Positions 3,103 to 41,964 of a stretch of DNA of 64,000 nt are shown here, in pieces. Position 1 is the first letter of the stretch, and the number at the start of each line of letters is the position of its first letter. A model generated the notes under the pieces. That model saw nothing but the letters and a program-made list of their open reading frames with translations. It was not told the DNA's origin and did not search any database. The stretch covers positions 16,894,645 to 16,958,644 of the forward strand of contig OZ316893.1 in assembly GCA_973895155.1 (NCBI GenBank), in the 5' to 3' direction. A program made the translations under genes and the position numbers. The DNA comes from Marsupella aquatica (lineage: Eukaryota; Plantae; Marchantiophyta).

Positions 3103-3490
3103 ACACCGTTGGTTAAAATGACGATAATACATTTTTTGTCATTTATCACCGTTGTCCAAAATGATGCAAATAGATTTTTGGTCATTTCAGTCATTGTCCA
3201 GAGTGACTATAATGTTGCTAAACACTGATTTATCATTGTTGTTATTAATTGTGTCATTTAAGACATGTGTCTAAATTGACCATTTAGGGAAATTGGGTCA
3301 TTTTGGTCGCATCAGTCATTATAGACATTATACAAAATGACGAAAAAATTAACATTTTGTCATTTCAGTCTATTGGTCATTGTGGACAGTCATTCCCCCG
3401 TCATTCTTTTTGTGTCATTAAAACTTTTGGTCATTTATTCATCTCTGTCATTGGGTGATTGGTCATAAAGGGCCCTGTTTTCTTCTAGTT

Positions 3491-13478: not shown

Positions 13479-14049
13479 CACTACTACATATTTGGCCTTT
13501 TTGCGAAGGCAATTTAGTCGCGCTGAAACGCCATGCGAGACACTGTCCATTGCTCGCTTTGCAATTGATCACTCATCTCAATTAGCAATAATAATCGCAT
13601 CGCAAACCCAATTTGCGATGCAGAACCCGTCTCAAATACTTGCGATGCTTACTTAATCGCAAACATGTTGCAATATCATCTCCATTCGGCCGGGTTTGCA
13701 AACCATTTGCCATTGCAACTATTCTGCGATCCTAATACCCTCAACACTTTTGCGAGTCATCGGCCCTCACTCAGACTTTTGTAAGACTTATTTTATCGCA
13801 AGTCTGCGAACATGAATGAATGGCAACTATGTGAATAGATTAATATCGCAATATCATGCCGACTTAGGCAACAATATTTGCGATGAAATATGGTTTGCAA
13901 ATTTATGATGCAAGTTGATTCGCAAGATTGCGAGGATGTGGGAATGGACAAGTTGCGAATATTATTTTATTGGAAACATTTAGCGAAGGTATTGCAAAGG
14001 AATCCTGTTCGCAAAAATGGTTCGCAAAATTAATAAGGGACGTTGAAGG

Positions 14050-14915
14050 TAATTTAGGAGAAAAAAGGGGATGGGCCAAGTGAGGGACAATGGAGGGACA
14101 AGGGTAGGAGGGAGAAAGAGGGAGAAAGGGGATGGTTGGGACAAGGAAAGGAGGGAGGAAGGAGGAGGGTGCGCCAATTTAGGGAAGGCCGGTATATAGG
14201 TAAGAGGGAGAAAGGGGGTGGGATGCAAGGAATCAAGGGAGGAAAGAGGGTATAGGCAAGGTAAGAGGGAGAAATTAAGGAGCCAGGGTGGGACAAGAAA
14301 TGGAGGGAGGGAAAAGGAAAAGACGGAGGAAGGAAGAGGGTTAGCCAATTAATATAGGTAAGAGGGAGAAAGGGTTTGGAACAAGGAAAGGAGGGAGGGA
14401 AAAGGAAAAGAGGGAGGAAGGAGGAGGGTTGGCCAATTAATTTAGGTAAGAGGGAGAAAGGGTTTGGGACAATGAAAGGAGTGAGGAAGGAGTTTGGGTA
14501 TATATACCTAAGAGGAAGAAAGTAAGGGTCCAGGATGGGACAAGGAAGCGAGGGAAGGGGGAGGAGGAGGGTGGGCCATGAATTTAGGGTACAGGGATGA
14601 GGGGGTGGGACAAGGAAAGGATGGGGCAGGTTGGAGGGACAAGTTAGGGAGGGCCGGTATAGGTACTTAAGAGGGATTAAGGGGGTGGGACAAGGAAAGG
14701 AGGGAGGCCGGGACAAGTTAGGGAGGGTCAGTTTAGGTAAGAGGGAGAAAGGGTTTTGGACAAGGAAAGGAGCCGGAGGGACGGAGGGAGGATGTATATA
14801 ATTATATATATGAGGGAGAAACTAAGGAGCCAGGGTTTAGGTTAAGAGAGGGAAAAGGAAAGAGGGATTTAGGGAGAAAGGAGGTGTGTCAAGGAAAGGA
14901 GGAAGGAGAAAGAGT
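14050..14915 (+). repeat. Purine-rich (GA) degenerate minisatellite with recurring GGACAAGGAAAGGAGGGAGG and TAAGAGGGAGAAA
   Basis: The + strand is strongly purine-biased, with many G-runs. Confidence 0.85.
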
Positions 14916-15079: not shown

Positions 15080-15662
15080 AATCCAATGATAGGAATTGGC
15101 ATCACTATATATCCGCATAATATACATATCCCTCATTCTTGGTCCACATCCTCATCAGTTGGGGACACAACCATAACATCAGGCCTTTCCCCGATAATAG
15201 AACAAGATCGTGGCACATACGTGATGACAAGTGACCACTTCTCTGGGTTTGGGGGGTATGGAATATAGAAACATTGCTCCACATGGCTTGGAAATATAAA
15301 TGGCTCTGATGTTTGCCAGTGCGATGGCTGGAAACTAGTGGCAGACGTCTTGAGTCGTGTAAATCCACACTCATCTTGAACCACAATGAGATTGTTACTT
15401 GCAAGGTTCACTTTCATCTTGAACCACAATGGGATTGTTACCTGCAAGGTTCACTTTGAACCACTTGCACTTGAAGATATACTCTTCAAACTTTGACTGT
15501 GCATCATATGATACCACTAGGATCTCCTCTATTTTTCCATAATATGGCACAACATCTCGAATAATATTTCTGTCGTGATGACTGCTGCAAGAATCTTGAG
15601 AGAATTGTCCTTGAACTCCACAATCAAATGTATGACCCCTCTTCTCATCAAGGGAAGAAACC
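15080..15662 (-). pseudogene. Last exon of CACTA B TnpD (DUF4216-like region)
   Basis: VSSLDEKRGHTFDCGV...IVVQDECGFTRL...EPFIFPSHVEQCFY is homologous to exon 3 of the CACTA C TnpD. It is disrupted by a 43-bp tandem duplication near 15372-15457. Confidence 0.85.
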
Positions 15663-16929
15663 CCACTAGTAGAAACCGGGGCAATTTAGACCATACCTTA
15701 TAGGACTAAGCCCACTAAGTCCTTTTTCCATACTTGAAATGACTCGCACCCATTGCACCGGTTTTGTTGAAGACTACAAAAGACTATTAGTGTTTTATGG
15801 TTCACTAAAAGACTATGAGAAGTAACCTTGCTACTTTGTGAACGGTGAATAGTCTAGCACATCATGGGTAATGTTCACTTATGTTGAGGAGGGGTAATTC
15901 TGTAAAGAGGGAGATAGCAAGGGGCATAACTCAATAAATGGCCTTATTTGTGACAAAAAAGGTTTTGGAGTGAGGTTCATGGAGGGTGGACTACGGAGGG
16001 ATCGATTACTAACTCCATCAATAAAAGGCCGAGATGCACAAAGGTAGATTTGTACCGGTCTCAAGGGGGTGTGGGTTTAGGGTTAGGGGGTTGTCCAGGC
16101 GAAGAACACTCGATTGAAATAGTGACGCAATGGTTTAGGGTAAAGGAACATGTTTAGGGACCCTAACTTGTTTGCTGCCTTGGGAGGATCTTGAGAGCCT
16201 GAGCTTGCAAGCAGCATGCACTCTAAAAATGGCCCTTGGCATTGCAAAGATAGTCTGGCCACAGTCGAGTTGTGAAGACGTTTAGGGGGTTTATATGTCA
16301 AGGCTAGGGGGTGGCTGGGTTTTCACTAAAGGGGGTTTAGGGGGGTTTGATGTCAAGGGTCGGGGGTTGCATGTTAAGGGGATGGGGGTTTAGGAACCAT
16401 TGGATCGTTGGCATCATGTCCATTGACATCATGTTCCCCATCATGTCCATTGACATCATATATGTCGGGAAAGATAATTGACAAATTATTCATGAGGGTA
16501 GGCAATTTGGACAATGTTCACTTGTGTTCAGGAGGGGTAATTGCATAAATTAAGAGGGTGATGACAAGGGGCATCACTCATTAAATGGCCTTATTTGTGA
16601 CCAAAAGAGGTTTGGTTTAATGAAGTTCGATCACCACAGATATTTGCTAAGGCCAAAGTATTTGTTTAGCGACACTACACTAAGTTGTCACTCACAACAC
16701 TTGAGTGAATGGAGGGGGTTTATGGAGGGTCAGGATAATCTTGCCGTTACCATGTCGGCAACACCAGTGACTTTGGTAAGGGTATCCCAAGCTAGGGGCC
16801 TGTACCGCTTGCAGTACCGTTTGGACACCCGAGTCGCGCGACCGTTGGAAGGGAACAAGCCGGTTATGCAACTTTGCTTACACTTAGCAGGTTGTTGATG
16901 TGTTTAGGGATCCCGCCACATTCCCAACT

Positions 16930-17150: not shown

Positions 17151-20100
17151 TGCAATGACCGGCTCTCGAAGGGTGAGGTGAGACAACCAATTCAACGCCC
17201 TTTTGCTGCACCCTTAAGCTGTTGAGCTGCCATTGAGCTGGTGAAGCTGCATGCGGGTTGCATCTGTTCTACGGGCGCACTATCTGCCTGGTTTATGGAT
17301 TGTGGACTTTGTGGGGAGCGACAATCGGTAACAACGTGAAGGCCATCAGAGGCTGGGCAAAGCAGTTTAGGGTGCTGTGGTCGAGGAGGAGCTCACCACA
17401 AATTGGGGAGAAGACGCGGGTGACGAGCTGGGGGCGGGGAGGAGCTGCGGTCAGGGAGGATACAGACCGTCTACAGAACGACTGGCAGTCGGAGCGGCGC
17501 AGGAGCTTAGAGTGGGCCAACGCCAGCTGAATACAAGCCAGGAGTTGCATAAGGTGAGAGTCCAAGTTTTGTGTTGCTTTAGTGTTCGAGCAGCGTGCTG
17601 CCATTTCAGCCACAGTGCACCGCCTTTGAAGCTCCCATTGTCAGGGCTGGTAAGACATCACGGCTACATTGCTTTTCTTTGTTGTCCTCTGTCTTTTTGT
17701 GGGGACAACCTACTTGATTTGAGCTGCGCAAATCGTCATAAGTTAAGGCATGCGTCATGCCATCTGGATAGTGTGCCACCGAACTGTGGGAGGATGAGCA
17801 ACGCGTGGCTGTAAGCAGGTATTCTGTCAGCACAGGCGAGACTTCATTGTTAAAATCCTATTGCCTGCAATGTGTCTTGTAATGTGTTTTTCCTCATTCA
17901 ATCAGGAGCTGAGAAGGGTATTGTTAGGCTTCAATTACTCTGTGTTTTTCTCCAGCTCCATGGTACAGTTTGTGCTTTGTCTGGCGCCCATGCTCCGTCG
18001 ATCGTAGAGCTAGGTCAACCGAGCTTTGAAGAGGGAGGCTGTGGGAGCTCCTTACTGTGCTGCAGCTGCTCTTCAATCAACGGTGTAGAGATTGTAGCTA
18101 CGATCAGTGTTTGCGGAGCTGCCAGCCGGGTGCTTCGATAGTAGAGAAGAGCAGCCACAGTGATTCAGTCCTTCTCCTACGTGCAACCAAGGACCCCCTG
18201 TGCATCGTAAAGTGTGACCTCGGAGCTGAGCTGCGCACTGTCTCTATTACATGCCTTGTTGTTCTCTATTACATGCCTTGTTCTCCCGTCCACTATTTCC
18301 TGTGATTTTCTTTCTTCTAGAAGAGAATGGTGATTTCTTCTTCAATCAAACAAAACCCCACCCAACCACCACCCAAGAACGTGGGGTGCGCGCTTCTCAA
18401 TCCTCCTCAAACTGGCCCCAAGTCTGCTGAAACCCAATATATTACCCACCGGCACCAAGGGTCCAGTCCCAACCCGTCTTTCGCTTGCCACCCTCCTCAC
18501 TCTCTCGCGCATCTATCTCCCGATATTTCACGCGCAGCCGAGCCCACCAAAAGCTCTCTCCCTACAATCCCTCCTAAATCAACTTTCTCGTTTCCTGCTG
18601 CTGCTGATGTATGTTTGTTCTCCCCTATTTTTGTTTACTGATTGGTCTCTCCACACTTCCTGCTTGACATTACTGTTTTGCTCCTCCTGGATCCAAACAT
18701 GCCTTGTGCCCCGTGCTCCAACCTGCATCCTTTTCTTTACTGAGGGGGGGACCACAGCCTCCAGCCATACCTTGTGGCAGGCCTGGTCAAGACGGTGGTC
18801 GGTAGCTCGTTTTTGCTTTTTTCTCTTTTGTTTCCCAAGCTTCTGGGCGAGGGCATTACCATTCTGGATTCTCCGCGAGGCGCCACTAGCTTTTTTTCTC
18901 GGTTGCCCGTGTGCCTGCCTTCTTAGTTTTGTTTTTTCCTCAAGTGACCGGGCCATCGCTGTATGCAGATTTTTCTTGTTGTATTCATGTACAATATTTT
19001 ATTGTTCTATCTAGGTTGTGGCAAGCCAACAAACTGTTGACAACCAACATGGAATAACAACTATGCAGTGCAATGGCAGAGGACACTGTCCAATACAGGA
19101 ATGACATGGTTATGTTTTCAATTCCCTGCTTGGATGAGGCGTGGTGTTGCTTGTAATCATGTATTTCTTCACACTAGAAAAGCAGTCTGTCAGATGAGGT
19201 TGTCGGGATTGTCTGTGGGTCAGTCATCTTACGGACACCTAGCAACGTCAAATGAATGGCGGAAACGGGCCATGTTGTCATTTTGAAATTTGTCTTTCCT
19301 TTTGCCATGCTACCCAATCATTTTGTTAGTCCATGAGTCATAGATTCATAGATTCTATGTTTTGTGCTTTGTCTAGAATGCTATGGCGCCCATGCTACAA
19401 TTTGTGGTTTTTGTCTAAGCACAAATCCTCTCTGTGCCTGGTCTCTGTGTACCGTCATTTGGATTGATTGTGCAGACGTTTCCTCTTCTCCCAGTCCTTG
19501 TCATCCACCAGCCAAAGCACATTGGATTGTTTTCAAAGGAGGGCTGTGTAGTTCGGAGGGTTTGATCTATGCAGCGGATTTGAGCAGATTGGCGGTTGTT
19601 AGTTTCTTCTTGTAAAACCTGTCTGTCTTTTCTGCTTTTGGCCATGCTCCTTCACTTGTTGCTGCAAGCTCAATGTGCTTCAGCTATGGCAATATTCACT
19701 TACCCTGTCCCAACGGCACTGCCATGAGCTGTAGGACAGCCAACAGAAGCAGATTGTATCAATTGCATGTAAGTCAGGGTATTTTATGTATTGCGGAACA
19801 ACTGTCCAAGTATGCTGCAATGGTCCATCTTGCGGAGCTGAATGAGCCAATTTCATTTTCCCTGTGCACTTCTATTTCTCAGAGAATTCCCTGGTCATGC
19901 TCATTTCCCCCAGAGTTAGAAAACAAAGAAGAAGAGCTGACTAATTGTAATTCCAATCCATATCCTGATCGGTCAAGGATTGTTCACTACATTGGCCTTG
20001 TCATTGGCCGAGGTCACCAAATTTTGCTTGGTTTCATTCCTGTGGAGCACTGCTGTGATGGATTTGTCGTAGCATTCTGCAAACTCTCACGGTTTGCTTA

Positions 20101-20469
20101 TGGCCATTATTTGCAATTTGCTGCTACTAATATGTCTTCTTCTGAGCAGCATACACCAGAAGTAAGCAATAGTGGAGGTTTAACTGCACATCAACACATC
20201 TAGTGAACTACCTCTCTGCTGCTCACTGGAGGGTGAGACTTTCACTCTTTCTGGATATTGTAGTTTGTAAGCAAGTTGATTAGGAGTGTTTCATGCTATG
20301 TTTACACTGTGACCCCTAGCTGGAACCAATGGAATGACACAGTGAGTGGGAACTGATAATTTAAGGTTGGTTGCTGTTGGTGAGGCAAGTACAGCTCCTG
20401 CTCACCTTGCTGATCGAAGGTGCTTATCAGAGGACGTGAACACACGACATCTCCACAAAAGCAACACTT

Positions 20470-20919
20470 ATGGTGAGGACCCGCAACGCTGAACATGTGC
20501 GGCTTGCACGCAAGGCAGAGATGTTGCGCCTTGAGTATGTCAAACTTGGGATCCTTCCAGCCCAGTCTGCATGGTACTTTGAGTACCCAGTTGTTGCCAG
20601 GAACAACTACAGCCGGCCTGTACCTGCTTCTCCACCCTTCCCAACATCCTTGGTATTTCTGTCTCTTGTACATGACCCGCCACAAATTAGGACCCAAGGG
20701 TGTGTGCACAGTTGCCAATATGACTGTCCTGCCTGTAGGGCTTCTGGCCTAGAGTTGGATGACCGTTCTCTTGGATGTCGGTTTTTTCACAGAGCACAAT
20801 GTATCATCTGGAACCACTCGCCATCCTGCAGTGTGCCTGGCGATGTCACTTGTCCTGCCCTCCCAGACCCCACCACCGGTCACTTTGGTGTCTACACATG
20901 TTTGGATCACACGCTCTAG
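20470..20919 (+). CDS. Cys/His-rich hypothetical protein, possibly a degenerate zinc finger; CACTA C cargo
   Basis: ATG-initiated 149-aa ORF containing CVHSCQYDCPAC...GCRFFHRAQC. Same strand as the other cargo ORFs; no family recognised. Confidence 0.35.
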   Translation: MVRTRNAEHVRLARKAEMLRLEYVKLGILPAQSAWYFEYPVVARNNYSRPVPASPPFPTSLVFLSLVHDPPQIRTQGCVHSCQYDCPACRASGLELDDRSLGCRFFHRAQCIIWNHSPSCSVPGDVTCPALPDPTTGHFGVYTCLDHTL

Positions 20920-21588
20920 AGGACCACTTGTCACACCACATGCACAAACTAGAGACCATTGACCTATAACTTAACACTTTGACTTGAACAGAGAGGATAT
21001 TTACTTAAGATTTTGAATTATGACCAATTTTGGGTCCAGGGTTTAGGGTCAACAGTACATAACTTATCCTATTATGGCTGCACTAAGTACAATATCCTAA
21101 TTTAAGAGGCTAGCACGCTCACTTAAAAGTCTCCTTTCAAAGACTGGAATTAATGGGCCATGTGATAACCTGGAAAAAGTGATTTATGCCTAACTTATTT
21201 GTCTCATTCACTATCATAGCCTATTTAGGATGTATAAATTACAACCCTGATCACACTGCTTGATACCAATCCTGTTCAAAAAATGCCTGTTTTACATGTC
21301 ACGACTGTTATATGTGATTCAAATGCATTAAATCTTGTTGCAGATCTCCTTTGGTGAATCATAGCCACAAAATTGAGGTGTAGGTGGAGCTATTGTACGA
21401 GGGGATCAGTTTTTAGTGTGGGCTCAACAAACCAAAAAGTATGTCTACTCTGCACATGTGTGTGAACATTTCATTGCAGTAGCAATTGCCACTCTAGTCT
21501 ATATGCTACACTGTACTTTTTGTACACTGCACTAAATTGTATTGTCCGTGCACTCTGCTAAATTGTACTATCTGTCTCATGCGTAGGC

Positions 21589-22255
21589 ATGGCACGCCCT
21601 AAAATCCGAGCCAAGAAGCGGGGGACAGAGGTGAGCAACACAGGTGTAGTTGGGCCAGATGGTAGTAACTTCTCCGCAAGTCAGATTTTCCAGAAGGCAG
21701 CTCATTGTTGTGCCATTTGTGACGATGGTGGTGGCTTAGCCTTGCATGAGGCATTTCCACCTCAACCCGAAGTCTGACCTTGCTGCAGAAAACAACTGTC
21801 CAGGGGTGGGCCTCCCGTCAGCACACCAGGGAGGCTGGATGTGCACTGATTGTTTGGAGAAGCAGGCTAAGTGTGCACAGTGTGGGAAGTTGGGGTCTTA
21901 TGAGGGCTCTGTTGATGCTCCACCACTTGTTAGGAAATGCCCTGACAGATATTGTGTGAGGTTCTTTTGTTTTTCATGTTTGCCCGATCTTGCCACAACT
22001 TGCCCACTTCATAAGTGCAAGGCATGTGGTCAGCACGATGAAGATTTCTGGGTGGACATAGTCCACTGTGTTAGGTGTCCCACCATGTGGCACTTTCATT
22101 GTTTGAAGGAGCGTCAAGCAGAAGGCTATGCTTGTGACAGACACATCTATGATCACTCTGCACATGGTGTTGATCGATGGATCTTCTATTGTCATCGCCA
22201 TGCCATAGATCCTACTTTGCACACTCCCATGAGAGATCACATTTCTTGGCTTTGA
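21589..22255 (+). pseudogene. EDM2-like multi-PHD-finger module with a small frameshifting deletion at ~21742
   Basis: CAICDDGG.L/CMRHFH...C.DC.EKQAKCAQCGKLGS...C..FF...CPLHKCKACG...CVRCPTMWHFHCL...IFYCHRHAIDPTLHTPMRDHI. This is colinear with the EDM2 PHD region as I recall it (CAICDNGG, CPLHKC, IYCQEHEIDEELLTPVRDHVKF). An acceptor-like GCGTAG lies just before the ATG. Confidence 0.8.
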
Positions 22256-22819
22256 ACCTGAATAATATACATGCATAGTGCACCTGATGTGGATACCTTG
22301 GAGATTGCAGACATTCCAATTTTGAGAAGAAGGACCTCTGTAGGAGAGGATGCTTAGGCAACAAGTACCCTAAGTTCATTACTTGTTCCTGGGTACATGC
22401 CTTCAAAAACTGCCCTTAAGCCTTCTAGGAACTTTTTTAACTCTGCAATCATTTTGATCACGACTTACATGACACTGCTTAAATTAAATCAGGACTTCTC
22501 ATTATGAGCATATAAGTTACAAGGCTATTTAATTTGCGAGAATTCCCTTAAAGTGTACCAACATTTTGTATTCTCATTGAATGTCTGCCCATTTACAACA
22601 TCTGTATGTGGCATCACAAAACAATTGCACTTGTCACCTTCAATATTGTGAAGGCACATATTCAAACTATGAGGTGCATGCTTGCAGGTGTCTAGTACGT
22701 TTGTCCCAATATTTCTCCCGTTTGGAATCGGAGCAGAGACTCACCAGACGACTGGACTGGACCAAGTTATAAACGCAGCATTTTAAGGGCCCTTCGATTA
22801 TCAGGTGAACGCATTATCT

Positions 22820-22977
22820 TCCGGTCTGCAGTGATTAGGTGGCCCGTGTGTACATGGCCTCTAGGAAACGTACAAAGGTTGACCACCCGCCTCTGTTGTC
22901 CGGTCTGCAGTGATTAGGTGGCCCGTGTGTACATGGCCTCTAGGAAACGTACAAAGGTTGACCACCCGCCTCTGTTG
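22820..22977 (+). repeat. Exact 79-bp tandem duplication spanning the BRCT gene start
   Basis: TCCGGTCTGCAG...CCTCTGTTG occurs at 22820-22898 and again at 22899-22977. Confidence 0.95.
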
Positions 22978-23781
22978 GCTGGAATCAAAGCCATTTTGAT
23001 TCCTGGCCACTATGGGTTCACCCAAGTGAGTTGGCCAATCGTACAAAAACGATTCTCAGAGTTCCATGGGACTGAAGTCAAGGACATCACTCCACAGACT
23101 ACACATGTTGTTGCGGGGACATGGCTGGATGTGATGAACAAGTGGTCATGGTCCTTCATTGATTCTGCCATTACCAACCAAGGTCTAAAAGTAGTTGAAG
23201 TCTCTTGGCTGACCGATTCTGTTAAACATAGGTGTGTACAGAGTACTGAGCAATATGAGTTGTGGGAGAGTGAGGAGGCCACTGCAGAGGCTTTGGCTGA
23301 AAAGGAAGCCTATGAAGCAGCGGCAGAGAAACCCAACTTTGCTTCTGTCCAATATGGACCTGTTGTCAACATAGGACACCATCCTATGCGTGCAGATGCT
23401 ATATTGAATGAGCATGGCAAGGAGAGAAATACCATTATGAAGGGGTTCAGTGTGGTATTTGCAGAAGAAGGAATTGGGGAGACTAAGTGCAGACTGTACA
23501 AGTCTATAGTTGTTGAGCTAGGTGGGACAGTGGAGGAGAGTCTAACAGAAACCTCCACTCATGTTGTAGGTCTGTCATACATGAAAATATGCAGAAAATT
23601 CTTTAAGACAACAGTGCGTGATTTTGTCATGAACAACAATCTTTGGGTGCTTTCCCCTGATTGGCTTCTGGAATCAGCAGCTAGAGGGAAGCGACAGAAT
23701 GCTTGGGACTTTGATATTTTTGAGGCCTGGCCCTCCAAGATTCAGTGGAGATGTATGCTTAGCAAAGGTGGGAGAGAGTGA
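22933..23781 (+). CDS. Tandem BRCT-domain protein (282 aa); CACTA C cargo
   Basis: Two repeats with BRCT hallmarks: (G)G-x-V...THVV...VV/VL-x3-W-L-x-D/E-S (TTHVVAG...VVEVSWLTDS; LGGTVEESLTETSTHVVG...VLSPDWLLES). The frame is intact and AATAAA lies at ~23825. Confidence 0.85.
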   Translation: MASRKRTKVDHPPLLAGIKAILIPGHYGFTQVSWPIVQKRFSEFHGTEVKDITPQTTHVVAGTWLDVMNKWSWSFIDSAITNQGLKVVEVSWLTDSVKHRCVQSTEQYELWESEEATAEALAEKEAYEAAAEKPNFASVQYGPVVNIGHHPMRADAILNEHGKERNTIMKGFSVVFAEEGIGETKCRLYKSIVVELGGTVEESLTETSTHVVGLSYMKICRKFFKTTVRDFVMNNNLWVLSPDWLLESAARGKRQNAWDFDIFEAWPSKIQWRCMLSKGGRE

Positions 23782-23957
23782 GGAGTAGGAGTCCCTCATA
23801 TTTTTGTATAAAACACAATTTTGTAATAAATGTGATCCTTGAACTAACTCATCTTGTCATGGTTGGTCGCAGTTGAAGTGATTGTTGTTTCCTGCTGCGT
23901 GGGGTGTGACTGTGAATCTACTTGCTGGGCTCTGTTTGGCTGAAGACTTTGGTGGGT

Positions 23958-24491
23958 ATGCTGCCTCTTCCAGACCGTCAGGCCCTATGTAGGGTCCTCC
24001 TACGGGTTGCATTGTGCATGGCTACTGCTTGGGCTTACTTGTGTGGATTGGTAACCAGACAGAGTGTAGCTCCATCCGAGATAATGCCTGCAGACCTTGG
24101 ATGTGTTGTGAATGCTGTGGTGAATGAGGATGCACAGTCGGAAGAGGACATTTACTTTTCAGCAGATGAGTTAGACAAGCACGATGCTGTAGGTGGTTCC
24201 TTGTTGCCTGATTTGGCAGATGATATAGTTCTTACACATGTCTGGCCGAGGGTTCTTGTGGTGTCTGGCGCACAAGATATCTGCAAATATAGACTAATTA
24301 GTACCCAGTGGAGGGACTTGGTAGCAACATGTGCACCATGGAGGGCACTGCTGCCACTGCTTGTAGGCACGGATCGAAGACCACCATGGCATGAGCAGGG
24401 TTTAGACCTTGATGACTTAATGTACATGCCTGAGTACCTCAGGGCTGAGTGGCATCGACAACAGGATTGGTATCCGTATTTGATGTGGTAG
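23958..24491 (+). CDS. F-box-like protein with a hydrophobic N-terminus; CACTA C cargo
   Basis: SLLPDLADDIVLTHVWPRV...CKYRLISTQWRDLV matches the plant F-box pattern L-P-x-L-x-D-D...R-x-V/I-S-x-x-W-R. Confidence 0.6.
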   Translation: MLPLPDRQALCRVLLRVALCMATAWAYLCGLVTRQSVAPSEIMPADLGCVVNAVVNEDAQSEEDIYFSADELDKHDAVGGSLLPDLADDIVLTHVWPRVLVVSGAQDICKYRLISTQWRDLVATCAPWRALLPLLVGTDRRPPWHEQGLDLDDLMYMPEYLRAEWHRQQDWYPYLMW

Positions 24492-24817
24492 TAAGATGAG
24501 GACATCTCACACCGGTCTCGCACCTGGCACCTGTGTCTATGACTATACATGATTGGACTCTGATATGGTCATGGATGTACGTGCAGAGGCAGTACATGTG
24601 AGGACAGCGGAGGAGTTGACACCCTCAAACATTTAGGAATTTTGTCTCATTCACTTGAGAATAGGTACATGACTCAGGCACCTATATTTTTTGTTTTTTT
24701 GTTTTTTTGGAACGTTACGTATTTTGGCAAGTACAGTCGGGGGTGAAATCCTTAACAGGAAGTGTATTTTTCACTTGCATAATAAAATGACAGGGTGCTG
24801 AGTGCGTGTGTATAGTG

Positions 24818-27800
24818 ATGGCTCCAAGGTTGCCTCTTCACAACCCATTTAGGATTAGGCATCATGATTCTAAATTGTGGATGCGTGAACAAGCCCGGGC
24901 CGCCCAAGGTAGGAGTAGGAGGATGAGATGCCCATGCACACAGTGCCAAGGATTCAAGTCGTTGAGTTTGAACACTGTGCACCTTCACCTGCTGCGGCAT
25001 GAAAGGCACCCTCGGTGGAGGGTTTGGAATGTACCAGCAGAAGAAGACTCCTCTGATGAAGAGTGGAGAACTGACTTTGTGGATTCTAATACAGCTAGGC
25101 GTAGAGACTACGTAGAGCAGGACATAGACTGTGCAGAGGATGGTCCTGGGGTCCAACATGAGAACGTGGATGACCAAGATGGAGATGCAGAGGCAGTCAC
25201 TGAGGACGGTGGGATGGATGTCCCAAGAATGGTTCAAGAGATTTTTGAAGACCTTGATGCTTTTTACGACACAGTGGAATCAGAAGAGGACAATGAACCG
25301 CAGCCACACATTGGCGACGGCCAAGCTCAACCTGACTTTGACATTGGGGAAGGTGCAGCAGAGAGGGAGTGGGTGTTTGGGGGCCCAAAACACATCAAAG
25401 AAGCTTGCATTCCTATCTACGAGGGGTCGAACTGCTCCAAGCTGGGTTTTGTCGTGTTGTTGTTGAACATCTATGGCAATCACAATGTTCCCAATATATT
25501 TGTGACAGAGTTGTTGACCTTCCTGCGCCGAAATGTGTTACCAGATGGTAATTCAATTCCAAAAAATATGTACGAGGCTAGGAAATTGATGTCTAACCTT
25601 GGGCTGAACTATGTGTCTATTGACGCATGCCCTGATGGGTGTGTTCTCTTTCGCAAAGAGCATGCAGATAAATTGACATGCCCTCATTGTGGTAAGCACA
25701 GGTACAAGAATGTAGGGAAATGTACACACCCTGCCAAGGTTCTTCGTCATTTTCCTCTCATTCCTAGACTACAACGTCTGTTTAGATGCCCTGCCATTTC
25801 CAAGCTGATGACATGGACTCCTGATAACAAGAGCAGTGATGGCCTGCAGCGTCACATTGGAGATTCCAACCATTGGAAATTTGTTGATGAGAGGTGGCCA
25901 CAGTTTGCTGCAGAGAAGCGGAACTTTCGATTTGGTCTATCACTGGATGGAGTAAACCCATTTGGAGACAAAAACAACCGTTATTCATGTTGGCCGGTTA
26001 CGCTGCTAAATTACAACCTTCCCCCATGGATGACTACAAAGAGGTTTTTTGTCATGATGGTGCTGTTAATCCCTGGACCAGCTTCTGTGACCGAGCAATT
26101 CATAGATATCATGTTGGCTCCAGCAGTGGAAGAGTGGAAGACTTTGTGGATAGAAGGGGTGTTAACCCATGATGTTCTGAAGGGGCTTCTTCGACCCAGC
26201 CCCTTTAGACTGCATGCAATTTGTTTGCTGGATATAGCAGATTACCCAGGCCATGGCATCATATCTGGACGAGTGACAAAGGGCTATGTGGGGTGCACAC
26301 CATGTGGGAAAAATGTGACAAGTGAGTGGTCGCATGCCCTGCACAGTATGAAATTTCAGGGGCATAGAAGGTATCTGCCTGTTGATCATCCTTACAGGCA
26401 CACACGGTCTCAAATTGCACACTTCAACAACAAAACAGAGCTTCGTGGCCCACCACAGAGGGTCACCAGAGAGCAAGTCCTGAGGTGGGCAGCCAGGAAG
26501 GCTGATTGGGACAAGAGAAGTGCCACTGATCGAGAACCTGAGGATCCAGTGGTGAAACACGGTGTGAAAAGACAGACCTTGATGGACTTGGAGTTGGAGT
26601 ACTGGAGGGTAATGTACTTAGCCTCCAGCCCCTGTATGATTGCAATTTTAGATTGGAGCAATGGTGGATTGATGTTGGTTACAATCCTCTTATGTGGTTA
26701 ATTAGTGTTTCTGTTGTTGAATTCTTTGCTTTGTGGAGTGCAGGAATTCGAGCCCAGCAAACACAATGTGGACGTCATGCACATTGAGAAAAATATTTGT
26801 GAGAGCTTGCTGAAGTTCTTGTCGGGTGAGAAAGATACAGGAGCAGTTCGAGCTGATATGCAACAGAAGGGGATTCGCCCTCACCTTTGGTTGAAGCCCC
26901 ATGCAAGCAATCCCAATGTACTTCTCAAGTTCCAAGCTCCCTATGTGTGCACACAGGATGAATGGAAGACATTCTTGTATAGATTGAGCTGTCTGAAAGT
27001 GCCCTTTGGCTATGCTGGTGCCTTCAAGAAGCATATTACAAAGAATAAACTTGGCAGTATGAAAACACATGACTACCATGTGTTGATGCAGCACATTCTG
27101 CCCCTATGCCTCAGAGGTCTCATGCAGAAACCAGTCCGTAATGTCATTCTTCGACTGTGCAATGTATTTGGCCGTATATGTGTGAAAGTGTGGGATCCCC
27201 AAGGATTGGAGCAGTTGAAGCAGGATGCTGCTTATGTCCTCTGTGACTTGGAGATATACTTCCCCCCTGCTTTCTTTGATGTTATGACTCATCTCCTAAT
27301 CCATGTGGTAGAAGAGCTAGGGCAGTATGGGCCAGTCAGTACCAGATGGATGTACCCTATGGAGCGATACATGAAGTTGTTGAAAGGTCATGTGAGAACA
27401 TACTACAGGCCAGAGGCTTCCATGGCATTGGGGTACATTAAGGATGAGACGTTGGGATTCCTAACAGAGTACATGGCTGGGTCTGGTGAAGCTATGACAA
27501 GAGTTTGGAAATCTGGTGAAGATGATGGAGTGAGTGGCGAGGTTGTTGAAGGTGTGGGACGTGCTGTTCAGCTGCCTGTTGCGATTCGAGACAAGGCTCA
27601 TTCATATGTGCTGGCAAACACAGAGCCTATGCAACCATGGTGGAGGTGAGTGATTGAATTGACTTGCCTTTGTTGTGATGCTTCTTGTCAGTTCCAAGGG
27701 TGATCTTAGGTTGTCATGTGTTGTTTAGACCTAACTATGCCTGTACCTCATATTGCAGGGAATATGATATGCAAAAAGCTGCACACTCTGGGCAGCAGGA

Positions 27801-28518
27801 TCCCTTCCCACAGTTCGAGCAGTGGATTTGGGTGACAATTCGAGAGCATAGTAGACATCACCCAGATATGGAGAAGGATTTGTATCTTCTATCTGTGCCA
27901 CCACGATTGTCTATTCTGACCTACAAACGGATGAGAGCTTATGGAAATCATTATCGAGTGAGGGATGAGCAGGGTGACCATTGTGTATCATATGATTGTG
28001 GTTTGATTTTTGTGTTTGAGCAGAGAACCTCTGAAGAACAGAGGGGGTGGATGAAGATGGGTTACGTGGGGGAGTTGACCGACATTTGGGTGTTGAATTA
28101 TGGTAACACAAGTGTCCCAGTGATATTGATGAAGGGATCATGGGTGAAATCAGAGTGGCAGAGACCAAGGGCCACCATGAAGCGTGATCATGATGGGTTC
28201 TTGTTGGCCAATTTTAGGTCCAGAGTACCAGAATGGTCTGAGCCTTTTGTTTTCCCTAGCCAAGTTGAACAGGCTTTCTTTGCAGATGTGGAGGAGTCAC
28301 ATGGCTGGAGGGTGGTATGCCATAGCCAAGCACGGAACAGGCGGATGGATGGAAGTAAAGTAGAGTTCAGTTTGGATGACCATGCTGCATTCGAGCATCC
28401 TAGTCATGAGACTGTACTTCCAACTCGGGCAGGGACTGACTACATCCCCTTAACATTGAGAGAGACATATGATGAACCTGGGCAAATGGAATATGATGAG
28501 GTTGATGATTTGCAATAG
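24818..28518 (+). CDS. CACTA TnpD/Tnp2 transposase, 3 exons (24818-26608, 26744-27645, 27759-28518), 1150 aa, apparently intact
   Basis: Contains the CPCxxC...HLLRH N-terminal zinc motif, IDACPDGC, LSLDGVNPF, YSCWPV..NYNLPPW, DVMHIEKN, MKTHDYHVLMQ and RWMYPMERYM. GT-AG introns join the three ORFs in frame (3453 nt). Confidence 0.95.
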
Positions 28519-28695: not shown

Positions 28696-31600
28696 ATGGG
28701 GGAAGAGGGTGATGACATGGAGACAGACATGGGGCTTGGAGAGTGGGGTGAAGAGGAAAGATTGGATATGGATGGAGACCCAGATGCAGGGGGCTCACAG
28801 AAAAATGCACCTGTGCAAGATGCACAGGGCCCTCATCAAGTCCCAGGTAGGTGGGCAGTTAGAGAGAAATCACATAATCCATACCCTAGAAGGAGCCAGA
28901 GTTATTGGCAAGGGACGCCTGATAATTATGATGATGACTATGATGGAGCAGAAGATGGATGGGATGAATATGAACACCCAGAGCGTGGTAGAGACGGGTA
29001 CAGAGGGCAATGGAAAGGTGAGGAGGATGATTGGACAAGTAAGTGCCTTGTGCTAGTGATTTTGTGATGGTAGTAGAGATTTAGCTCAATATGCACTTAT
29101 CTGATGTGTAGCTAGGGCAAAGAGTTTATCTTACAGGTCCATGAGTGTGGCATGTACCTGTTGGTATGCAGACTCTGATTGGGACAATCACGAAAACAAC
29201 AAAGGCCATCCACGTTCAGATAGGAGGCAATCATTCACAGGCGGGAGAAACGCCCCTAATTCATCAAGACAAAGCAATAGGACAGGTGGTCCAGAACCAT
29301 CTATGCGCCAAGGGAGAGGTAACTTGGTCATTGCAGAATTGCTCTGAAGTCCACTGTATATTTGGCAGCGGGATTTATGATTCATACTTACCTAATGTAA
29401 GTGACTGTAAATGGATCCTGTAAATGTGCAGGGACTCCACGGAGGTTTGGACAATGCAATCCAGGCCGTGGGGGGAGATCAGGCCGTGGAGGGACCCCAG
29501 GCCGTGGGGGGACACCAGGCCGTGGAGGGACACCTAGTAGCGCTTCAGGGAGTACCAAGGCAGGAGACAGTAACAAATTTGGTAAAGTAGAAGTGAATTC
29601 CGAAGGTTGGATAACTCCCACATGTGATGGTAAGAACCGTTGGCATTCTGACCTAAGAGGAGAAGTATTGCGTTGGTTAGATTTGAGCATTACAGAGTTT
29701 AGGAGTCAGAACAAAGCTGATTGGGCTGCTATCTGCAAGGACATTCTTGAATGGTGGGAGTATGTTGGTAATGATGGTAAGGGCCCAGTTGAAGATTGCA
29801 TATCAAATTATGCAATGAGGATTTTGAAACAAGAGAGGCATAGGTTGAAAAGGATGTGGATAGACAATGGTTCTAACAGGAGAATGCCACCACCCCCATC
29901 ATTGGAACTGGATCAATGGACACGGTTAATCAAAGGGTTCATGTCGGAGGCTGGACAGAGCAAGAGTGAACTGATGTCAAATGCTCGAGGCAAAGTGAAA
30001 CACCTTCACAGGCTGGGAGAGGAAGTTATGCTCCAGTGAAAGAACAATTGGTAAGGCAGTGACATGCCTGATAGTAAGCCTCAAACTTATCATCTTGCTA
30101 CCATTATTACATTTTCATTGACAATCAACACTTGGTTTCATTCATATGTATGTTGATGTGGACTGCAGAAGAAATTGACAGGTGAAGAACCATCAGCACA
30201 AGAAGTGAGAGAGGAGTTCATGAAACAAAGGAGTGAGGTGACAAGTGTAACTTCCAAACAGGTGATTATGTTGTAATTCTGTATGTTCTGTGACTATTTG
30301 GCCTTGAGCATCAGAAAGAAATGTAGTAGGAAGTAAGCAACCAGTTCTTGGGGACAGTTATCTGAGATATGTAAGCTGTGTTTTGACAGGGAACTGTTAC
30401 AACTCTCACAGAGATGTGTGAACGGTTGAAGTCATTAGAGTGTGGACTCCCTCGAGTGGAAAGTAAATTGGCTGATCGTTTGGATATTGTGGAGGTATCT
30501 GTAGCGAACCTTCTTGCATCAGTGGAATCTAATTTCAAGCTTGTGATTGAAAAATTGGGTGGTTCCCAACCAAACAATGAGGGCAACATTGTACAAAGTG
30601 TGCCCTTGTTAACAAAAAAGGGAATTGGCAAATCTGACACAGGTATGGAAATGACACCGGCCCATTGTTCATTGTGTCCTATGTTCAAATGTTAGAAGTA
30701 AGTTTTCATGAATTGAGTGAATGGTTTGAATGCAGGAAGAGTGGAGGCAGAGAAGGACCCTGTAATCAGTAAGCAGAAGGGCAAGAAGGTTGCTGAGACA
30801 GGTAACCTGCTATGATCCAGTACATTACATTTGAAAAGTGCATGGAGTTTTGTGAAGCTTAAGCCGGTTGGAGGTAATCTTTTCTGTAAGAACTGGTTGG
30901 ATGAACTGGGATCTGAAGTGACATCATGATTGATGTATCAGGTGATTCAAAGAGCAATAATGAAGAAGATGTGCCCAGTGCCTCAGTGACCATAGCCAAG
31001 GAGGTATCAGGTAAGCTGATGCTTTAAATTCCTCTATATGAATGTTGAGCAACAATTCAGTGGTTAATAGATTCAACCTGAATATTGTGGTGTGTTTATT
31101 GATCAACAGAAGCAGACATGGAGCATATGGCAATGGCAAAGAAGGGGAAGAAGGCTGTTCATAATGGTAAGGAGATAGTGACAACTTTGTGGTTGGTGAC
31201 ATGTACATTTAGCACATGTGATGAGTGATTGACTTATGTTGGACATGACACTGAATTGTAGTTGATGCAGAGTTGACAGACTCTCAACCAAGTGGGAGTA
31301 GGGTGAAGCGACGTCGAAACTTGGGAGCAACATTGGATGCAAGTAAGATTGTAGATGCTTCAATTGAAGCAAGTACAATGTTGGCAGATACTGAGATGAT
31401 GTCGCAGGGAAATCCTGCTACACAATCAGAAGTGTCAAATATGGATGCAGATTCTTTGAAGAAGAGTGTAGCCAATTCTCGATCACCAGCACAAAACACT
31501 TGTGCCAAAGTCATGACTCGCAACCAAGGTATGAATAATGTCATGTATAAGCCACCCAGGAAAGCCAAGAAAAACAGCCAGGGTAAGGTGGAGGTGATAG

Positions 31601-31866
31601 CCACAGCAGAGCCAGTCCATAATCTTCTATCATGGGAGGATGACTCGCAGGTATGTGTGGGTACAGGCATTTTGCGACCGGATCATGCAAAATTCCATGG
31701 CAAAGTGGTCCCGGATGACCATGTAGTAGTGTTGTTGACTACAATGATTGTATCTGATTGTAATTTGCCATTTCCGAATAGAGACGATGATCCACCTCAG
31801 GAAATAATTGCAGATGCAGTAGGATCTCTTGTGCTCTGGCCATCAGAGTGTGTTAGTCTGCAGTGA
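28696..31866 (+). CDS. CACTA TnpA-like multi-exon gene (Ptta/En/Spm-like core, Tnp1-like C-terminus), probable 1-bp frameshift near 30015
   Basis: Many small GT-AG exons. The core reads QWTRLIKGFMSEAGQSKSELMSNARGKVKHLHRLG, with RGSYAP in a shifted frame. The C-terminus reads FHGKVVPDDHVVV...LPFP...DAVGSLVLWP. Confidence 0.75.
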
Positions 31867-32293: not shown

Positions 32294-35244
32294 TGTTGTA
32301 ACTCATACTTGAGTTAAGTCTACCTTTGGGATAACTACCTATGTAACTACCCTAACTACTTAGGCCGTAGCCACATGTACATATTCTACCAAGAGTAAAG
32401 ATGGAACCAACTCTTTGTCTCATTTCTCCCACAACACGTTATCAGCACGAGCCTAAGACTGGCTGAATTTTTTTTTAGGCCATGACTGATTCACTCTAAG
32501 ACGAAGAAAGAAGGGAAAAGACGTGATTCGAATGTGCCAAAGTTTTTTTTGCGAGAGCTGCTTGAAGCGCTGCACGAGCAATTTTTCTTTGGAAGAAAGG
32601 CCAAGGAAGAATTGATCCCAGCTATGGTGAATTGAATATCAAGGCGCCATCTTATTCGGTGCACGCTTTTCAAGTCAGTATAGCAGTAAGGCAATAGCAA
32701 CAGTCAGTCAGAGCCAATGTTGTTGACGCGTTCACAAATCTGGAAACGAGCCAGCGATTGGAACTCCAGCCATTTCGAGGAGTCGGAAGTTGGTGGCCAA
32801 GGTGTTTTCTCACTCCCTGGCGAGCAAGACCCTCACACCAACTACATCTTTTATTGATAAGATTTCTAGCGAGCACCAGCTCACTGACGGCTGGTCGTGA
32901 GCGCACAACAGATTGGAGTACGACAACCTACTCTATTTCCTGTGTTTGCTTCCAGTTCTACTCGAGTCTACCGCTGGAGGCATTCGAAATGGACGAAGCA
33001 GTAACAGGATGTTGTGATTTCTTTCCCGACACTACGCTTTCCCGACACTATGCTGACAGAAAAGCAGGACAAACATGGGGAAATTAAACCCGTTGGTCGC
33101 ATCACTGGAAAACGAAAGAAGGATTTGGAGCAATCGCGTAAGAAGTGCAAAAAGAAGCAAGTGAAGAAAGTCGCGACTTACAGACCATAGAAAGTAGCGA
33201 CCTCCACTTCAGGCAGCGAGATCATCACACAAGCAAACCGATCCAAGGCGCAGATCACAGCCTCAATTCCATAAGGAACTCGTAAGGATAGCAGGAGATA
33301 AGGAAATTTTTCTTAGAAGATTCGAAGAGAACTCAAGAAGAAAGCAGAACAGAACGGAAGTCTATCCCCAACCGAGGATCACAAGATTACATTCTTCGTT
33401 AGTCATTGATGAGTCTTTTGCCCTTCGAGAGTAACCGATCTTGAAAAGCAGCATTCCCCTCCAGGGTGAAAAGGATAAGAAGAGCAAGACGACAGCAATA
33501 GAGAGAAGACGATCGAAAAGCGTAGGCAGGTCCCGTGAATTACCCTCATTCGCCGTTGCCCCTTCTGGAGAGCAACGATGGGTTTGTTCGAGAGCAGCTG
33601 GTACCCTGAAGGAAGATGATAAAGAAGAGGAAACCGAGCTACTGGATGCTCTAGTTTCTAAGCCGTACTGCGATGATGACGGCCTTTCCTACCGGCATTC
33701 TCACCAGACTTTACTATGTTGATGGAGACACCAAGAGCTTGATCGACTTTACACATCCATGACAATGGAGATTGAAGGAAGATTTCACATTTAGGGAGCA
33801 CGAACAAAAGACCCTCGGAGAAAAGAGGATAAGAGCACGAAGGGAACGCGCGCAGCAAAGAACAAATCTCGCAACAAAAATGCTGAAACGTCGAGAAAAC
33901 GTCGAGAACATACCGCTAAGTGCAAACCCTCCTTAATTGCAAAACCCGTCAAATAGATTTGCGTATACAAAGAACAATGTGCACTGAACCAGGGAAACAC
34001 ACATACTAAGAACGGGGACGAAATGGCATTAAAATGAAAGATATCTATTGGGAATATTACCATATAAGAATTGCCATTCACAAATTCAGGGGGAGAATTG
34101 TTTTTCCCAACGTGCCTACTGCACTTAAAAGTTAAGCTCCGTGCCTACTACACATGGAAGCCAATGAGTGCCTACTGCACATGGAAGTAAATGACAAATT
34201 GAGGGGGAGACCTCAAGTAAGACTTGACATCAAGCAATGTAACCCATGGGATGTGCCTATTGCACAAGTGCCTTTCGCACCAATGAATACCTAAAAATGG
34301 AACTCTATTCCATGCATATGGCAAATCATGAAATCTAAGGAATTTTTATAAATGATTGAATATGGTGTTAACACAATCACTTACCAATACTTGATGAGGT
34401 ATACTGGATATTAAAGTACCATATGATAATATGAGGTACAGTACCAGGTCATAAGGTACCATAAGGTGAGACATGGCATGGTAAGGCACCATAAGAGATG
34501 GTGCGCCATACCCCAATATGATAACCCTACGTTGTGGATATGGTACGTGATGTGGTGCAAATAGGTTATGCCCACACCAAATCTAGGGTTGGACACCCAA
34601 TCCAATTCCAAGGCCATGGATTACACCATATCATCTTCGTTTTGTACTAATACTTTACTTTGTCATGGCATGTAATCGGTGACCATCAAGGAGTCTCCAT
34701 TTCCAGATTGGAAGGAGACACGAGAAACAATCAACCAAGGAAGATCTTCAACAAGCCTATAGTGTTGACAAACACCTTAAGAGACTTTGTAGAAATTACA
34801 CATACACTATATTCTTAAACCCAATTATGTTACACCCATGGGGATGGTAATACTCTTTCCTCCCACAAAGAAAGTAGGGGAGGTTTTAATGAGGTTACAT
34901 CCCCCACTTACACTTTACCATGCAACATGAATTATAAGACATCTATTAGGAGAAGCTTGACATTCATTTATAGTAGACTTGAGATGGCTACACCATTTAT
35001 AAAATAGGCTAGACATAAACAAAACCTATTGTATACCACTGAATATACCCAAAGTAGACTCTTGATTGTAACATTTCAACCCCAATGTTACAAAGGGGGA
35101 GTGTTGTAACTCATACTTGAGTTAAGTCTACCTTTGGGATAACTACCTATGTAACTACCCTAACTACTTAGGCCGTAGCCACATGTACATATTCTACCAA
35201 GAGTAAAGATGGAACCAACTCTTTGTCTCATTTCTCCCACAACA
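32294..35244 (+). mobile_element. Non-autonomous Bianca-type LTR element (2951 bp) with identical 143-bp LTRs
   Basis: LTRs 32294-32436 and 35102-35244 (TGTTG...CAACA) are identical by eye. TSD ATATG is on both sides, the PBS is CGTTATCAGCACGA, and the PPT is AAAGGGGGAG. No gag/pol is present internally. Confidence 0.95.
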
Positions 35245-35817
35245 ATATGTTATTTGTGCACAAGAGTGGGTTCATTCCAAGTAGTATAGTGGGGTCTTCA
35301 TCACTCATATCCAGTTGACATGAAAGACTTATACATACCCCACAAAGTATATTTAAAGACTACCCTCCATAACCTTTTTAGTCGTTCCCAACGACTCATC
35401 ATCGCAGCCCATAAAAGACTAAAAACGACTCACCAAAGCTACCCACACAAAGACTAAAATAGACTGAAAATCCAGTCTATTAAACGACTTATAAACCAGT
35501 TCTATAAAGGACTCAGTTGATTATAGTAACAAAACATACGACTCGCAGTCCTATAAAGGACTAGAGTCCTTCCCAGTCATTTCCAAGTCCTATACGGTAC
35601 TGAATAGTCGTTTAATGGGGTCTAAATACCCCCCGGTTTCTACTAGTGCCCTAAATTCAATGAAATCATATGGACATGTTACAAAAAAATATATGCAAAC
35701 ATATTACAATTTTAACATAATACACCACAAATATATTTCCAGTATACATAACTAATATCTAATGTTTGACAAAAATATTAAGAGAGGATGGTTAGTAAGG
35801 TATGTAGGATCAATCAC

Positions 35818-38800: not shown

Positions 38801-39631
38801 CTAATCCCACTCATAGTGTGTGAATAACTCATCGCCAGCTCTAATGGTCCTAGTAGCAAGAACTAAGCAATGGTCCTTATGATATCTCTCACCATATGGT
38901 GCCGACATTGGACCATCAGTAAAAACCCACTCACAATTGGCCCTACGCTTGGGCCGAGTCCCCACAGTACTATTTATGAAGCCAGCAATATTCCCATTAC
39001 GTATGGGGTCACCGTCTATCACTCGCTGTTCACTATACCTTCTAGTGCTACCATCAAAAGTATCCATCTCTAAGGCATATGTTTTCCACTCAGGATGTTG
39101 TGCAAGGATCATGTTCCAGTGTCTTCTCTTGTAGATGGGTCCACCGTATGGGAACAAAGTAGGACCCTCTCTACCACAAACACTTGACCCACTCACATCA
39201 TCCACAATGATGTCCTCACAAGCAAAAACCCCATAGCCATGTCTCTCTCCAAGCGTCGAAGCCTTCACAACCCAACGTCTACCCCAAACCACAACCTCCT
39301 CATCAAAACCGATAAAATATGGCAAGCCAAGAGTTGAGGCATCCCACATCTTGATGATAGAAGCACACTTGCCAGTGAACTCACATATACCCCACCTACC
39401 CTCAACAAGTGTTCTGGATGGGTCAGTGGGCGCTCGTGGCCTCCTCCTGGACTCGGGCCTGGACCGCGGTCTTCGTGTCCCACTAGGCACTTGAGGCTAT
39501 TCCTCTTCTTCCCCATGAATGGTGCTCATCCCTACACCCAAGGCTTGTGAAAGTGCATTTCCTATAGCATCTAGAACCCCTTGTGATGGGACATAGGGTG
39601 GTGGTGTCACCACTCTACGCATGTTGGATCC
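38801..39631 (-). CDS. SET-domain (lysine methyltransferase-like) exon inside CACTA B, one in-frame TAG at 39497-39499
   Basis: SET motifs: STLGERHGYGVFACEDI (motif I), LFPYGG, IDG...NIAGFINS (RFxNHS-like), ANCEW, and ATRTIRAGDELFTHY (ELxxxY). The acceptor TAG at 39634-39632 is in frame with ORF 38801-39490. Confidence 0.85.
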
Positions 39632-39729: not shown

Positions 39730-39960
39730 CATATGGGATGAAGAAGCCCCCGGAGTAAGACCTCTATGACGGCCATGTCTCTCAATATGTTGAGCACATA
39801 CATAAGTCTTTTGAGAAATTTGGCCCACACATCTGGTGCATTGACAGAGTTGTCGAGGTGGACCACGAGGAGGACCGGTAACCTCAGGTTCAGGAGGAGG
39901 TGGTATATCCTCATCAGAGGAGGAGAAGTCACTGCTGGAAAGTTCTGAGGAGAAAGACAT
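39730..39960 (-). CDS. N-terminal exon of CACTA B TnpD (transposase-associated CxCxxC...HxxxH zinc motif)
   Basis: CQCTRCVG...CAQHIERHG parallels CPCTQCQG...VHLHLLRHE in the CACTA C TnpD. It ends at a phase-0 donor ATG|GTGAGT. Confidence 0.8.
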
Positions 39961-41790: not shown

Positions 41791-41964
41791 TTGCCGTAGC
41801 GCCCTTACTTTTGGCCTTGGCTAGGGTTCCATAGTCACCCTTGATTGTTTATATTTTCCTTTTTTTGTTATTATACTAATGTGTTTTCAGGGTACACTCC
41901 CGGTTTTACCACTTTAACTGGCCTAGTGATTCCTGGCTAGGCATCACAACAGGCAACCACAGGG

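Follow-up and report, generated by a model that had tools for sequence, protein, structure and literature searches.

Probable accessory genes upstream of an intact TnpD in a CACTA transposon of Marsupella aquatica

The window analysed here is a stretch of 64,000 nucleotides (nt) from the liverwort Marsupella aquatica (contig OZ316893.1, positions 16,894,645 to 16,958,644 of the forward strand). It contains a transposon of the CACTA/EnSpm superfamily, here called CACTA A, in which four compact open reading frames (ORFs) precede an intact gene for the transposase TnpD on the same strand. They encode, in order, a Cys/His-rich protein, a PHD cluster related to EDM2, a pair of BRCT domains and an F-box-like protein. 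A first-pass annotation of the window had taken them for a maintained set of accessory genes, unlike the fresh host-gene captures of Pack-CACTA elements, and this view holds, because the cassette is found beyond the present copy, lacks near-identity to any host protein found, and is constrained at the protein level. Taking all readings of this kind together, the four upstream genes are probably selected accessory genes of the element.

The element and its insertion site

The features of CACTA A and of its ends are as follows, by window position.

15661..15663, no strand: left target-site duplication (TSD), CCC, read in the sequence
15664..15681, plus strand: left terminal inverted repeat (TIR), 18 bp, identical to the right TIR (motif scan and end comparison)
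18300..18610, plus strand: pyrimidine-rich stretch ending in a GT donor-like site, a candidate promoter and shared 5' leader exon (from the sequence and a skew switch)
20470..20919, plus strand: ORF1, 149 amino acids (aa), orphan Cys/His-rich protein with a basic N-terminus
21589..22255, plus strand: ORF2, compact EDM2/NSD-type PHD cluster, frameshifted in the present copy
22820..22977, plus strand: 79-nt tandem duplication over the acceptor-like site and ATG of ORF3
22933..23781, plus strand: ORF3, 282 aa, two BRCT domains, linker of about 55 aa, basic N-terminus (Pfam BRCT E 6.5e-14, two stretches)
23958..24491, plus strand: ORF4, 177 aa, F-box-like motif near the C-terminus (Pfam F-box E 0.05-0.11)
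24818..28518, plus strand: TnpD transposase of 1,150 aa in three exons, without an internal stop (spliced model and Pfam)
28696..31866, plus strand: TnpA-like multi-exon region, exons incompletely modelled (weak Transposase_24 match, E 0.046)
32294..35244, plus strand: nested long terminal repeat (LTR) element, 2,951 bp, identical 143-bp LTRs (TG...CA), 5-bp TSD ATATG
35631..35648, minus strand: right TIR (motif scan and end comparison)
35649..35651, no strand: right TSD, CCC, within the TnpD of CACTA B

The paired TIRs and TSD of the first-pass annotation are borne out. The terminal 18 bases of both ends are identical, and CCC flanks the element on either side. When the window was scanned for the exact TIR motif, the sites at 15664 (plus strand) and 35633-35648 (minus strand) were the only two perfect matches among three found at up to 3 mismatches; the third, at 48044, has 2 mismatches, and 0.42 matches are expected by chance at the same tolerance. 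The right flank is the end of an intron in a decayed minus-strand TnpD, which belongs to another CACTA (CACTA B); the left flank carries on this TnpD, as read by eye and across the junction (the left-flank part has no Pfam match). Since both flanks continue the TnpD of CACTA B, the element ends mark the true insertion site, and the insertion of CACTA A into CACTA B is genuine. Two 9-mers, each present three times in 400 bp at both ends, are candidate subterminal repeats on a raw count.

With TIRs that begin CACTA and a 3-bp TSD, the element is a member of the CACTA/EnSpm superfamily. It is not a Pack-CACTA: it has its own transposase, and its cargo is not close to host genes, the host's own genome lying outside that comparison. 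The host lineage of the element is likely a non-seed plant.

TnpD is intact, as had been claimed, its spliced frame running through exons 24818-26608, 26744-27645 and 27759-28518 with matches to the four expected Pfam families (Transposase_21, DUF4218, DUF4216 and Transpos_assoc). The TnpA-like region is one base short at 30004 compared with contigs of 4/4 runs aligned, and the missing base may be an assembly slip. The four upstream ORFs were found on the plus strand in the order first described, and the frame of ORF2 is interrupted in this copy. The size of 20 kb given at first applies to the span between the TIRs, of which 2,951 bp belong to the nested LTR element; CACTA A proper is about 17 kb, since contigs of sequencing runs X2 and X3 skip that insertion. 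The nested element is very young. Its ends resemble a primer-binding site and a polypurine tract, and the ORF scanned showed no recognised coding domain.

The four genes upstream of TnpD

The EDM2-like assignment of ORF2 was confirmed by several kinds of evidence, which agree on an EDM2/NSD-type atypical PHD cluster. Pfam gives PHDvar_NSD (E 2e-5) and PHD_NSD (E 0.004), both below the curated cut-off; the best solved relatives by sequence are NSD2 and NSD3; and an intact relative has a predicted fold (predicted local distance difference test, pLDDT, 87) that matches PZP and NSD PHD-C5HCH structures. In the present copy the ATG frame of ORF2 ends at a stop at 21777 and the PHD cluster resumes in another frame, the lesion being a 14-nt deletion near 21733-21739 relative to intact relatives. 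The deleted bases are present in X1 contigs, in X3 record 20, in X6 record 25 and in 5 X2 loose ends, and because contigs of other runs keep them the frameshift is not the state of the family. Furthermore, two relatives among 9 candidates, P0001 (226 aa) and P0002 (220 aa), are intact single ORFs that start and end as ORF2 does, with 83% and 78% identity to it.

A profile search of 1.84 billion representatives returned 257 matches at E up to 0.001. The top 7 were stand-alone proteins of 166-245 aa, followed by the long EDM2-like proteins. A careful tree was built from 36 selected rows. Nine compact PHD rows fell on one side of a 100/100 branch, with a stem of 1.74 changes per site, and the sister group of this clade, with weak support (80/80), was a set of shortened liverwort EDM2-like proteins; the grouping is by branch support, with no one-clade test, long-branch effects could shape the placement, and the 147-row set was used for a quick tree only. 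The clade is at most 33% identical to any host-type EDM2-like row outside it (again leaving the host's own genome aside), in keeping with the strong divergence from host proteins noted at first. The relatives are complete at 220-245 aa and contain PHD matches only, without the RFD and N6-adenine-methyltransferase-like parts of EDM2 (the RFD is seen in host rows P0016 and P0017). Judged from its domains, ORF2 is thus an EDM2 derivative and not an EDM2.

The PHD family keeps its zinc ligands and shows constraint at the protein level. Cys was kept at 20/22 sites, compared with 36-41% of other sites (three pairs, p under 1e-5), and in neutral simulations a PHD frame at 46% identity stayed free of stops in 0/150. 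Six of the 18 motif-bearing rows of the family are full length; the others are cut or out of frame, which fits decaying transposon copies or contig ends.

ORF2 and several relatives start with M-A-R-x-K, a start like that of histone H3. Among 134 other matches, M-A-R starts occur in 15 and M[AT]RxK in 3, and because such starts are found in host EDM2-like proteins as well, the tail may be inherited or merely a nuclear signal. Named bryophyte and algal EDM2-like proteins with an M-A-R start are P0013, P0015, P0018, P0027 and P0089, and it is possible that this start is a conserved N-terminal motif of the early EDM2 family. Folding of the H3-like tail back onto its own PHD was considered and is unsupported, residues 1-25 being disordered in the model.

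ORF3 contains the two BRCT repeats that were first seen in it. One relative cluster, P0003, was found among 770 candidates, with 62% identity and common start and end. The BRCT cores are identical to P0003 at 137/202 positions (68%), compared with 22/54 (41%) in the linker (p 3e-4), and neutral simulations leave the frame free of stops in 0.7%. The best solved-structure match of the pair is DNA ligase 4 (E 0.0055), and that of P0003 is TdT (E 0.06). Taken singly, the BRCT domains of the window match BRCA1 first, at E about 0.1, apparently without its phosphate ligands. The BRCA1-type phosphate ligands are the Ser/Thr-Gly and Lys of the first repeat, and in a weak alignment (E 0.09) these positions align with Tyr and Ser. 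The predicted fold of ORF3 has a pLDDT of 32 and is unusable. The 79-nt duplication repeats the start of the gene and creates a short upstream ORF. Loose ends of run X1 over 22985-23549 suggest that this run holds a further BRCT gene family, more diverged than the first.

The remaining two proteins are less readily named. ORF1 had no Pfam match (E up to 0.1), no usable Atlas match and no PDB match under E 1; its relatives, 2 matches among 17 candidates, are intact stand-alone proteins, 55% and 54% identical to it, with a common MVRTR start, end and motifs. Neutral simulations leave ORF1 free of stops in 3%. For ORF4, the Atlas neighbours are two unnamed clusters (0.93 and 0.92) followed by an F-box cluster (0.90), and 10/10 of its best named Atlas matches belong to the family or clan of that F-box cluster; Pfam recognised no substrate-binding domain in it. 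Its F-box identity is a lead and not an established domain.

All six start codons have an acceptor-like site upstream, at 2, 2, 5, 22, 75 and 85 nt, with no ATG between. The pattern was picked after the sequence had been viewed, and its background is 5% within 5 nt. It is a hint, no more, that the genes have a common leader or leader introns.

Occurrence of the cassette and its possible role

For the cassette region, 20400-24600, 13 sequencing runs were listed and five were aligned in detail. The list names no RNA run, a fact to which we attach no weight. Part of the region is carried by 11/13 runs, and half of its words or more by 4/13. Cover of the cassette bins is 30/30 in X1, X2 and X5 and 27/30 in X6, that is, in contigs of four studies under four organism labels, so that the cassette is not unique to the present copy. 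Run X1 may be the source sample of the window. Contigs of this run show 0-3 differences from the window over 244-1,644 bp, and they bridge spacer 3 to ORF4 (23808-24217, 2 differences) and spacer 4 to TnpD (24540-25425, 2 differences). More diverged pieces of ORF1, ORF2, ORF3 and the spacers, at about 85-90%, align as well. From this overlapping cover we infer the synteny of the full cassette. Contig depth, which differs along the element, was set aside as a measure of copy number, the runs having been selected via the cassette. Pattern scans for related loci gave 0/172 and 0/94 in metagenomes and 0/95 and 0/29 in viral contigs. Host donors were found for none of ORF1, ORF3 and ORF4, in searches that lay outside the host's own genome and did not include sequence homologues of ORF4.

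We favour, at about an even chance, the reading that the four genes upstream of the intact TnpD in this CACTA/EnSpm element are long held and selected, and that they keep the element expressed and mobile in silenced chromatin. The left end is 9-16 kb away from TnpD and TnpA, with four other ORFs between, and host EDM2, as part of the Arabidopsis ASI1-AIPP1-EDM2 complex, is described as binding H3K9me2 and suppressing proximal polyadenylation in heterochromatic introns (PMC7529245, PMC7472560); it is this activity, together with the distance to TnpD and TnpA, that makes us favour expression in silent chromatin. One long pre-mRNA would serve all the ORFs, with splicing onto each of them in succession, as suggested by the acceptor-like site just upstream of each start codon. 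The PHD protein, lacking the RFD and methyltransferase-like parts of EDM2 and altered in its first pocket, could then bind the silent chromatin of the element itself or compete with host EDM2-type readers, and transcription would then be more likely to read through as far as TnpD and TnpA, the most distant genes. At the excision break, the BRCT pair may act on end-joining factors as a protein-binding adaptor or a decoy, and the F-box-like protein may engage or titrate SKP1. The present copy, young yet damaged, would have to obtain its PHD protein from sister copies.

A number of observations weigh against this reading. Among the four positions that precede the first Cys, 117/123 other matches of the PHD profile have an acidic residue and 0/13 of the tree-defined clade rows that show the region, the window included, do; in the clade a Q-K-x-x-H motif takes its place. 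In other PHD fingers this residue reads unmodified H3K4. Host-like histone reading is therefore doubtful, and of the histone reader proposed in the first-pass annotation the PHD cluster stands and the mode of reading calls for caution. Compact PHD-only EDM2-like rows occur within host-type clades too. The likeness of the BRCT pair to Pol X and ligase IV proteins is sub-threshold, and so is the F-box score of ORF4 (13-14 bits against a curated cut-off of 20.5). Cys retention in ORF1 (7/9, p 0.14-0.17) is not significant. The test for absence of stops is biased, as the intact relatives come from called ORFs. Among the variants listed, 7/15 in ORF1 are synonymous, where a fraction of 0.28 is expected (p 0.09; 40 of 383 rows), and the corresponding counts are 3/12 for ORF2-4 and 2/6 for TnpD (40 rows shown each). 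No single listed contig spans the whole cassette, none of the relatives P0001-P0011, P0003, P0158 and P0159 is tied to a CACTA, and the present copy has a broken PHD gene and perhaps a broken TnpA.

The main rival holds that the accessory genes are selected for the mechanics of transposition, the PHD protein tethering the transpososome to chosen chromatin, for example that of other transposons, and the BRCT pair recruiting end-joining factors to finish insertion. The same evidence of conservation applies to it, CACTA A is itself inserted in a CACTA, with transposon remnants abounding in the window, and DNA ligase 4 and TdT are the best solved structures for the BRCT family. However, a single insertion site says nothing on preference, the BRCT matches are weak and the single domains of the window prefer BRCA1, and EDM2, the donor family, acts on transcripts of silenced repeats. 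We consider this alternative unlikely, if still a serious one.

Selection could also date from an earlier life in a host, if a host gene cluster, or the cargo of another element, had been captured once and its genes had since been carried along without helping the element. The weak sister relation of the PHD clade to shortened liverwort proteins, the distant relatives, none of which is tied to a CACTA, and the decay of the present copy would suit such a history. Against it, 0/9 of the clade rows looked up carry a named annotated-genome record (their sources being Logan, JGI/IMG 'hypothetical' and ENA), many clade rows are broken, and closely related contigs from several organisms still contain intact frames, so that we regard a single capture as distinctly improbable. 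An ordinary Pack-CACTA, with recent neutral captures of host exons or with RNA-level camouflage through shared small RNAs, is very improbable and largely refuted: CACTA elements do pick up host DNA (PMC13317346) and the present copy has lesions, but its TnpD is intact, its PHD protein is as distant from host-type proteins as stated above (in a comparison outside the host's own genome), and its ORFs have conserved starts and stops of their own.

Maintenance of expression in silenced chromatin can also be put in a bolder form, which we think quite unlikely. An old CACTA lineage of non-seed plants would carry a kit of binding modules, in which a re-engineered EDM2 reader with an H3-like tail would hijack or decoy the machinery of heterochromatin read-through, a Pol X/ligase-IV-type BRCT pair would steer end-joining at the excision break, and a SKP1-binding F-box protein and an orphan zinc protein would complete the set, all under one leader exon. 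If true, this would be the first plant transposon known to combine readers and adaptors for silencing, repair and degradation.

Neighbouring features and comparison with known systems

CACTA B, into which the element has inserted, has the following parts.

35817-38560, minus strand: remainder of a decayed TnpD, 24-33% identical to the TnpD of CACTA A
38804-39496, minus strand: SET ORF (Pfam SET E 2.5e-6)
39730-39960, minus strand: short Cys/His exon resembling the N-terminal zinc finger of TnpD, read by eye

The SET exon reported in the first-pass annotation is real, and it lies in the position of the first intron of TnpD, not upstream of the gene. A long imperfect inverted repeat (41140-42596), with arms of about 640 bp that are 75-84% complementary, is found upstream of the SET region, and on the far side of the interrupted CACTA B there are tandem repeats of 578 bp that contain palindromes, repeats of 82-83 bp and a purine-rich array (1-3200 and 13900-14900). 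Elsewhere in the window, the site at 48044-48059 (plus strand) is a third CACTA-type terminus, after which the ORFs of a GC-rich region (48-52 kb) had no Pfam match. An ORF on the minus strand at 63230-63829 has a weak N6_N4_Mtase (DNA methylase) match, E 4e-4 and below the cut-off, followed by an acidic tail; it lies at the end of the window.

To our knowledge, CACTA elements of flowering plants have been described with TnpD and TnpA only. A CACTA family with an EDM2-derived PHD protein, a BRCT pair and an F-box-like gene of its own supplies small, testable proteins for two questions: by what means long elements are transcribed across the heterochromatin that they form, and whether elements steer the repair of the breaks that they make. 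Together with the SET exon of CACTA B, the cassette points to chromatin-related accessory genes as a common feature of CACTAs outside the flowering plants. The literature searched held no report of PHD, BRCT or F-box genes in a CACTA; subscription journals, Repbase Reports and supplements lay mostly outside this search, and a prior database entry is possible.

Like En/Spm of maize and Arabidopsis, CACTA A has CACTA TIRs, a 3-bp TSD, TnpD followed by a TnpA-like gene, and several products from one element; in Arabidopsis EN/SPM families, one or two genes are described as the source of TnpD and TnpA, and MuDR elements are described with up to six genes (PMC13547354). The present element differs in its four further ORFs before TnpD, which encode interaction domains of host type. 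With Pack-CACTA elements (Catoni et al. 2019, as described in PMC13317346), it has in common host-related sequence between CACTA TIRs, and it differs from them in keeping TnpD and in a cargo that is old, diverged and common to copies and organisms. The PHD protein has the same atypical PHD cluster as Arabidopsis EDM2 and about 30% identity to EDM2-like proteins (PMC7529245, PMC7472560), but it is a transposon-encoded protein of 220-245 aa, lacks the RFD and methyltransferase-like part, and has Q-K-x-x-H for the acidic residue.

Chromatin-related genes have been described in the same transposon clade or class, namely TET/JBP genes in fungal EnSpm, ESTA and Plavaka elements and SET genes in oomycete HarbingerS and MuDR elements, and were proposed to serve escape from silencing (Kojima 2025, PMC12730594). 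Those elements carry enzymes, whereas the present cassette has binding modules only, and PHD, BRCT and F-box are absent from the main text of that paper.

Few plant transposon factors that counter silencing are described as proven, namely VANC, miR820 and an Athila small RNA (PMC6719617); VANC, whose activity was shown by experiment, KIU/Ulp1 and miR820 are the plant precedents for the role proposed here (PMC6719617, PMC13317346). At the level of sequence, no Pfam match to the VANC/MAIN or Ulp1 families was found for ORF1-4 at E up to 0.1. The VANDAL MuDR elements, with VANB, VANC and KIU/Ulp1, belong to another superfamily, and the present cassette is known from its sequence alone; like it, they are multi-gene plant DNA transposons that have long kept accessory genes derived from the host (PMC6719617, PMC13317346).

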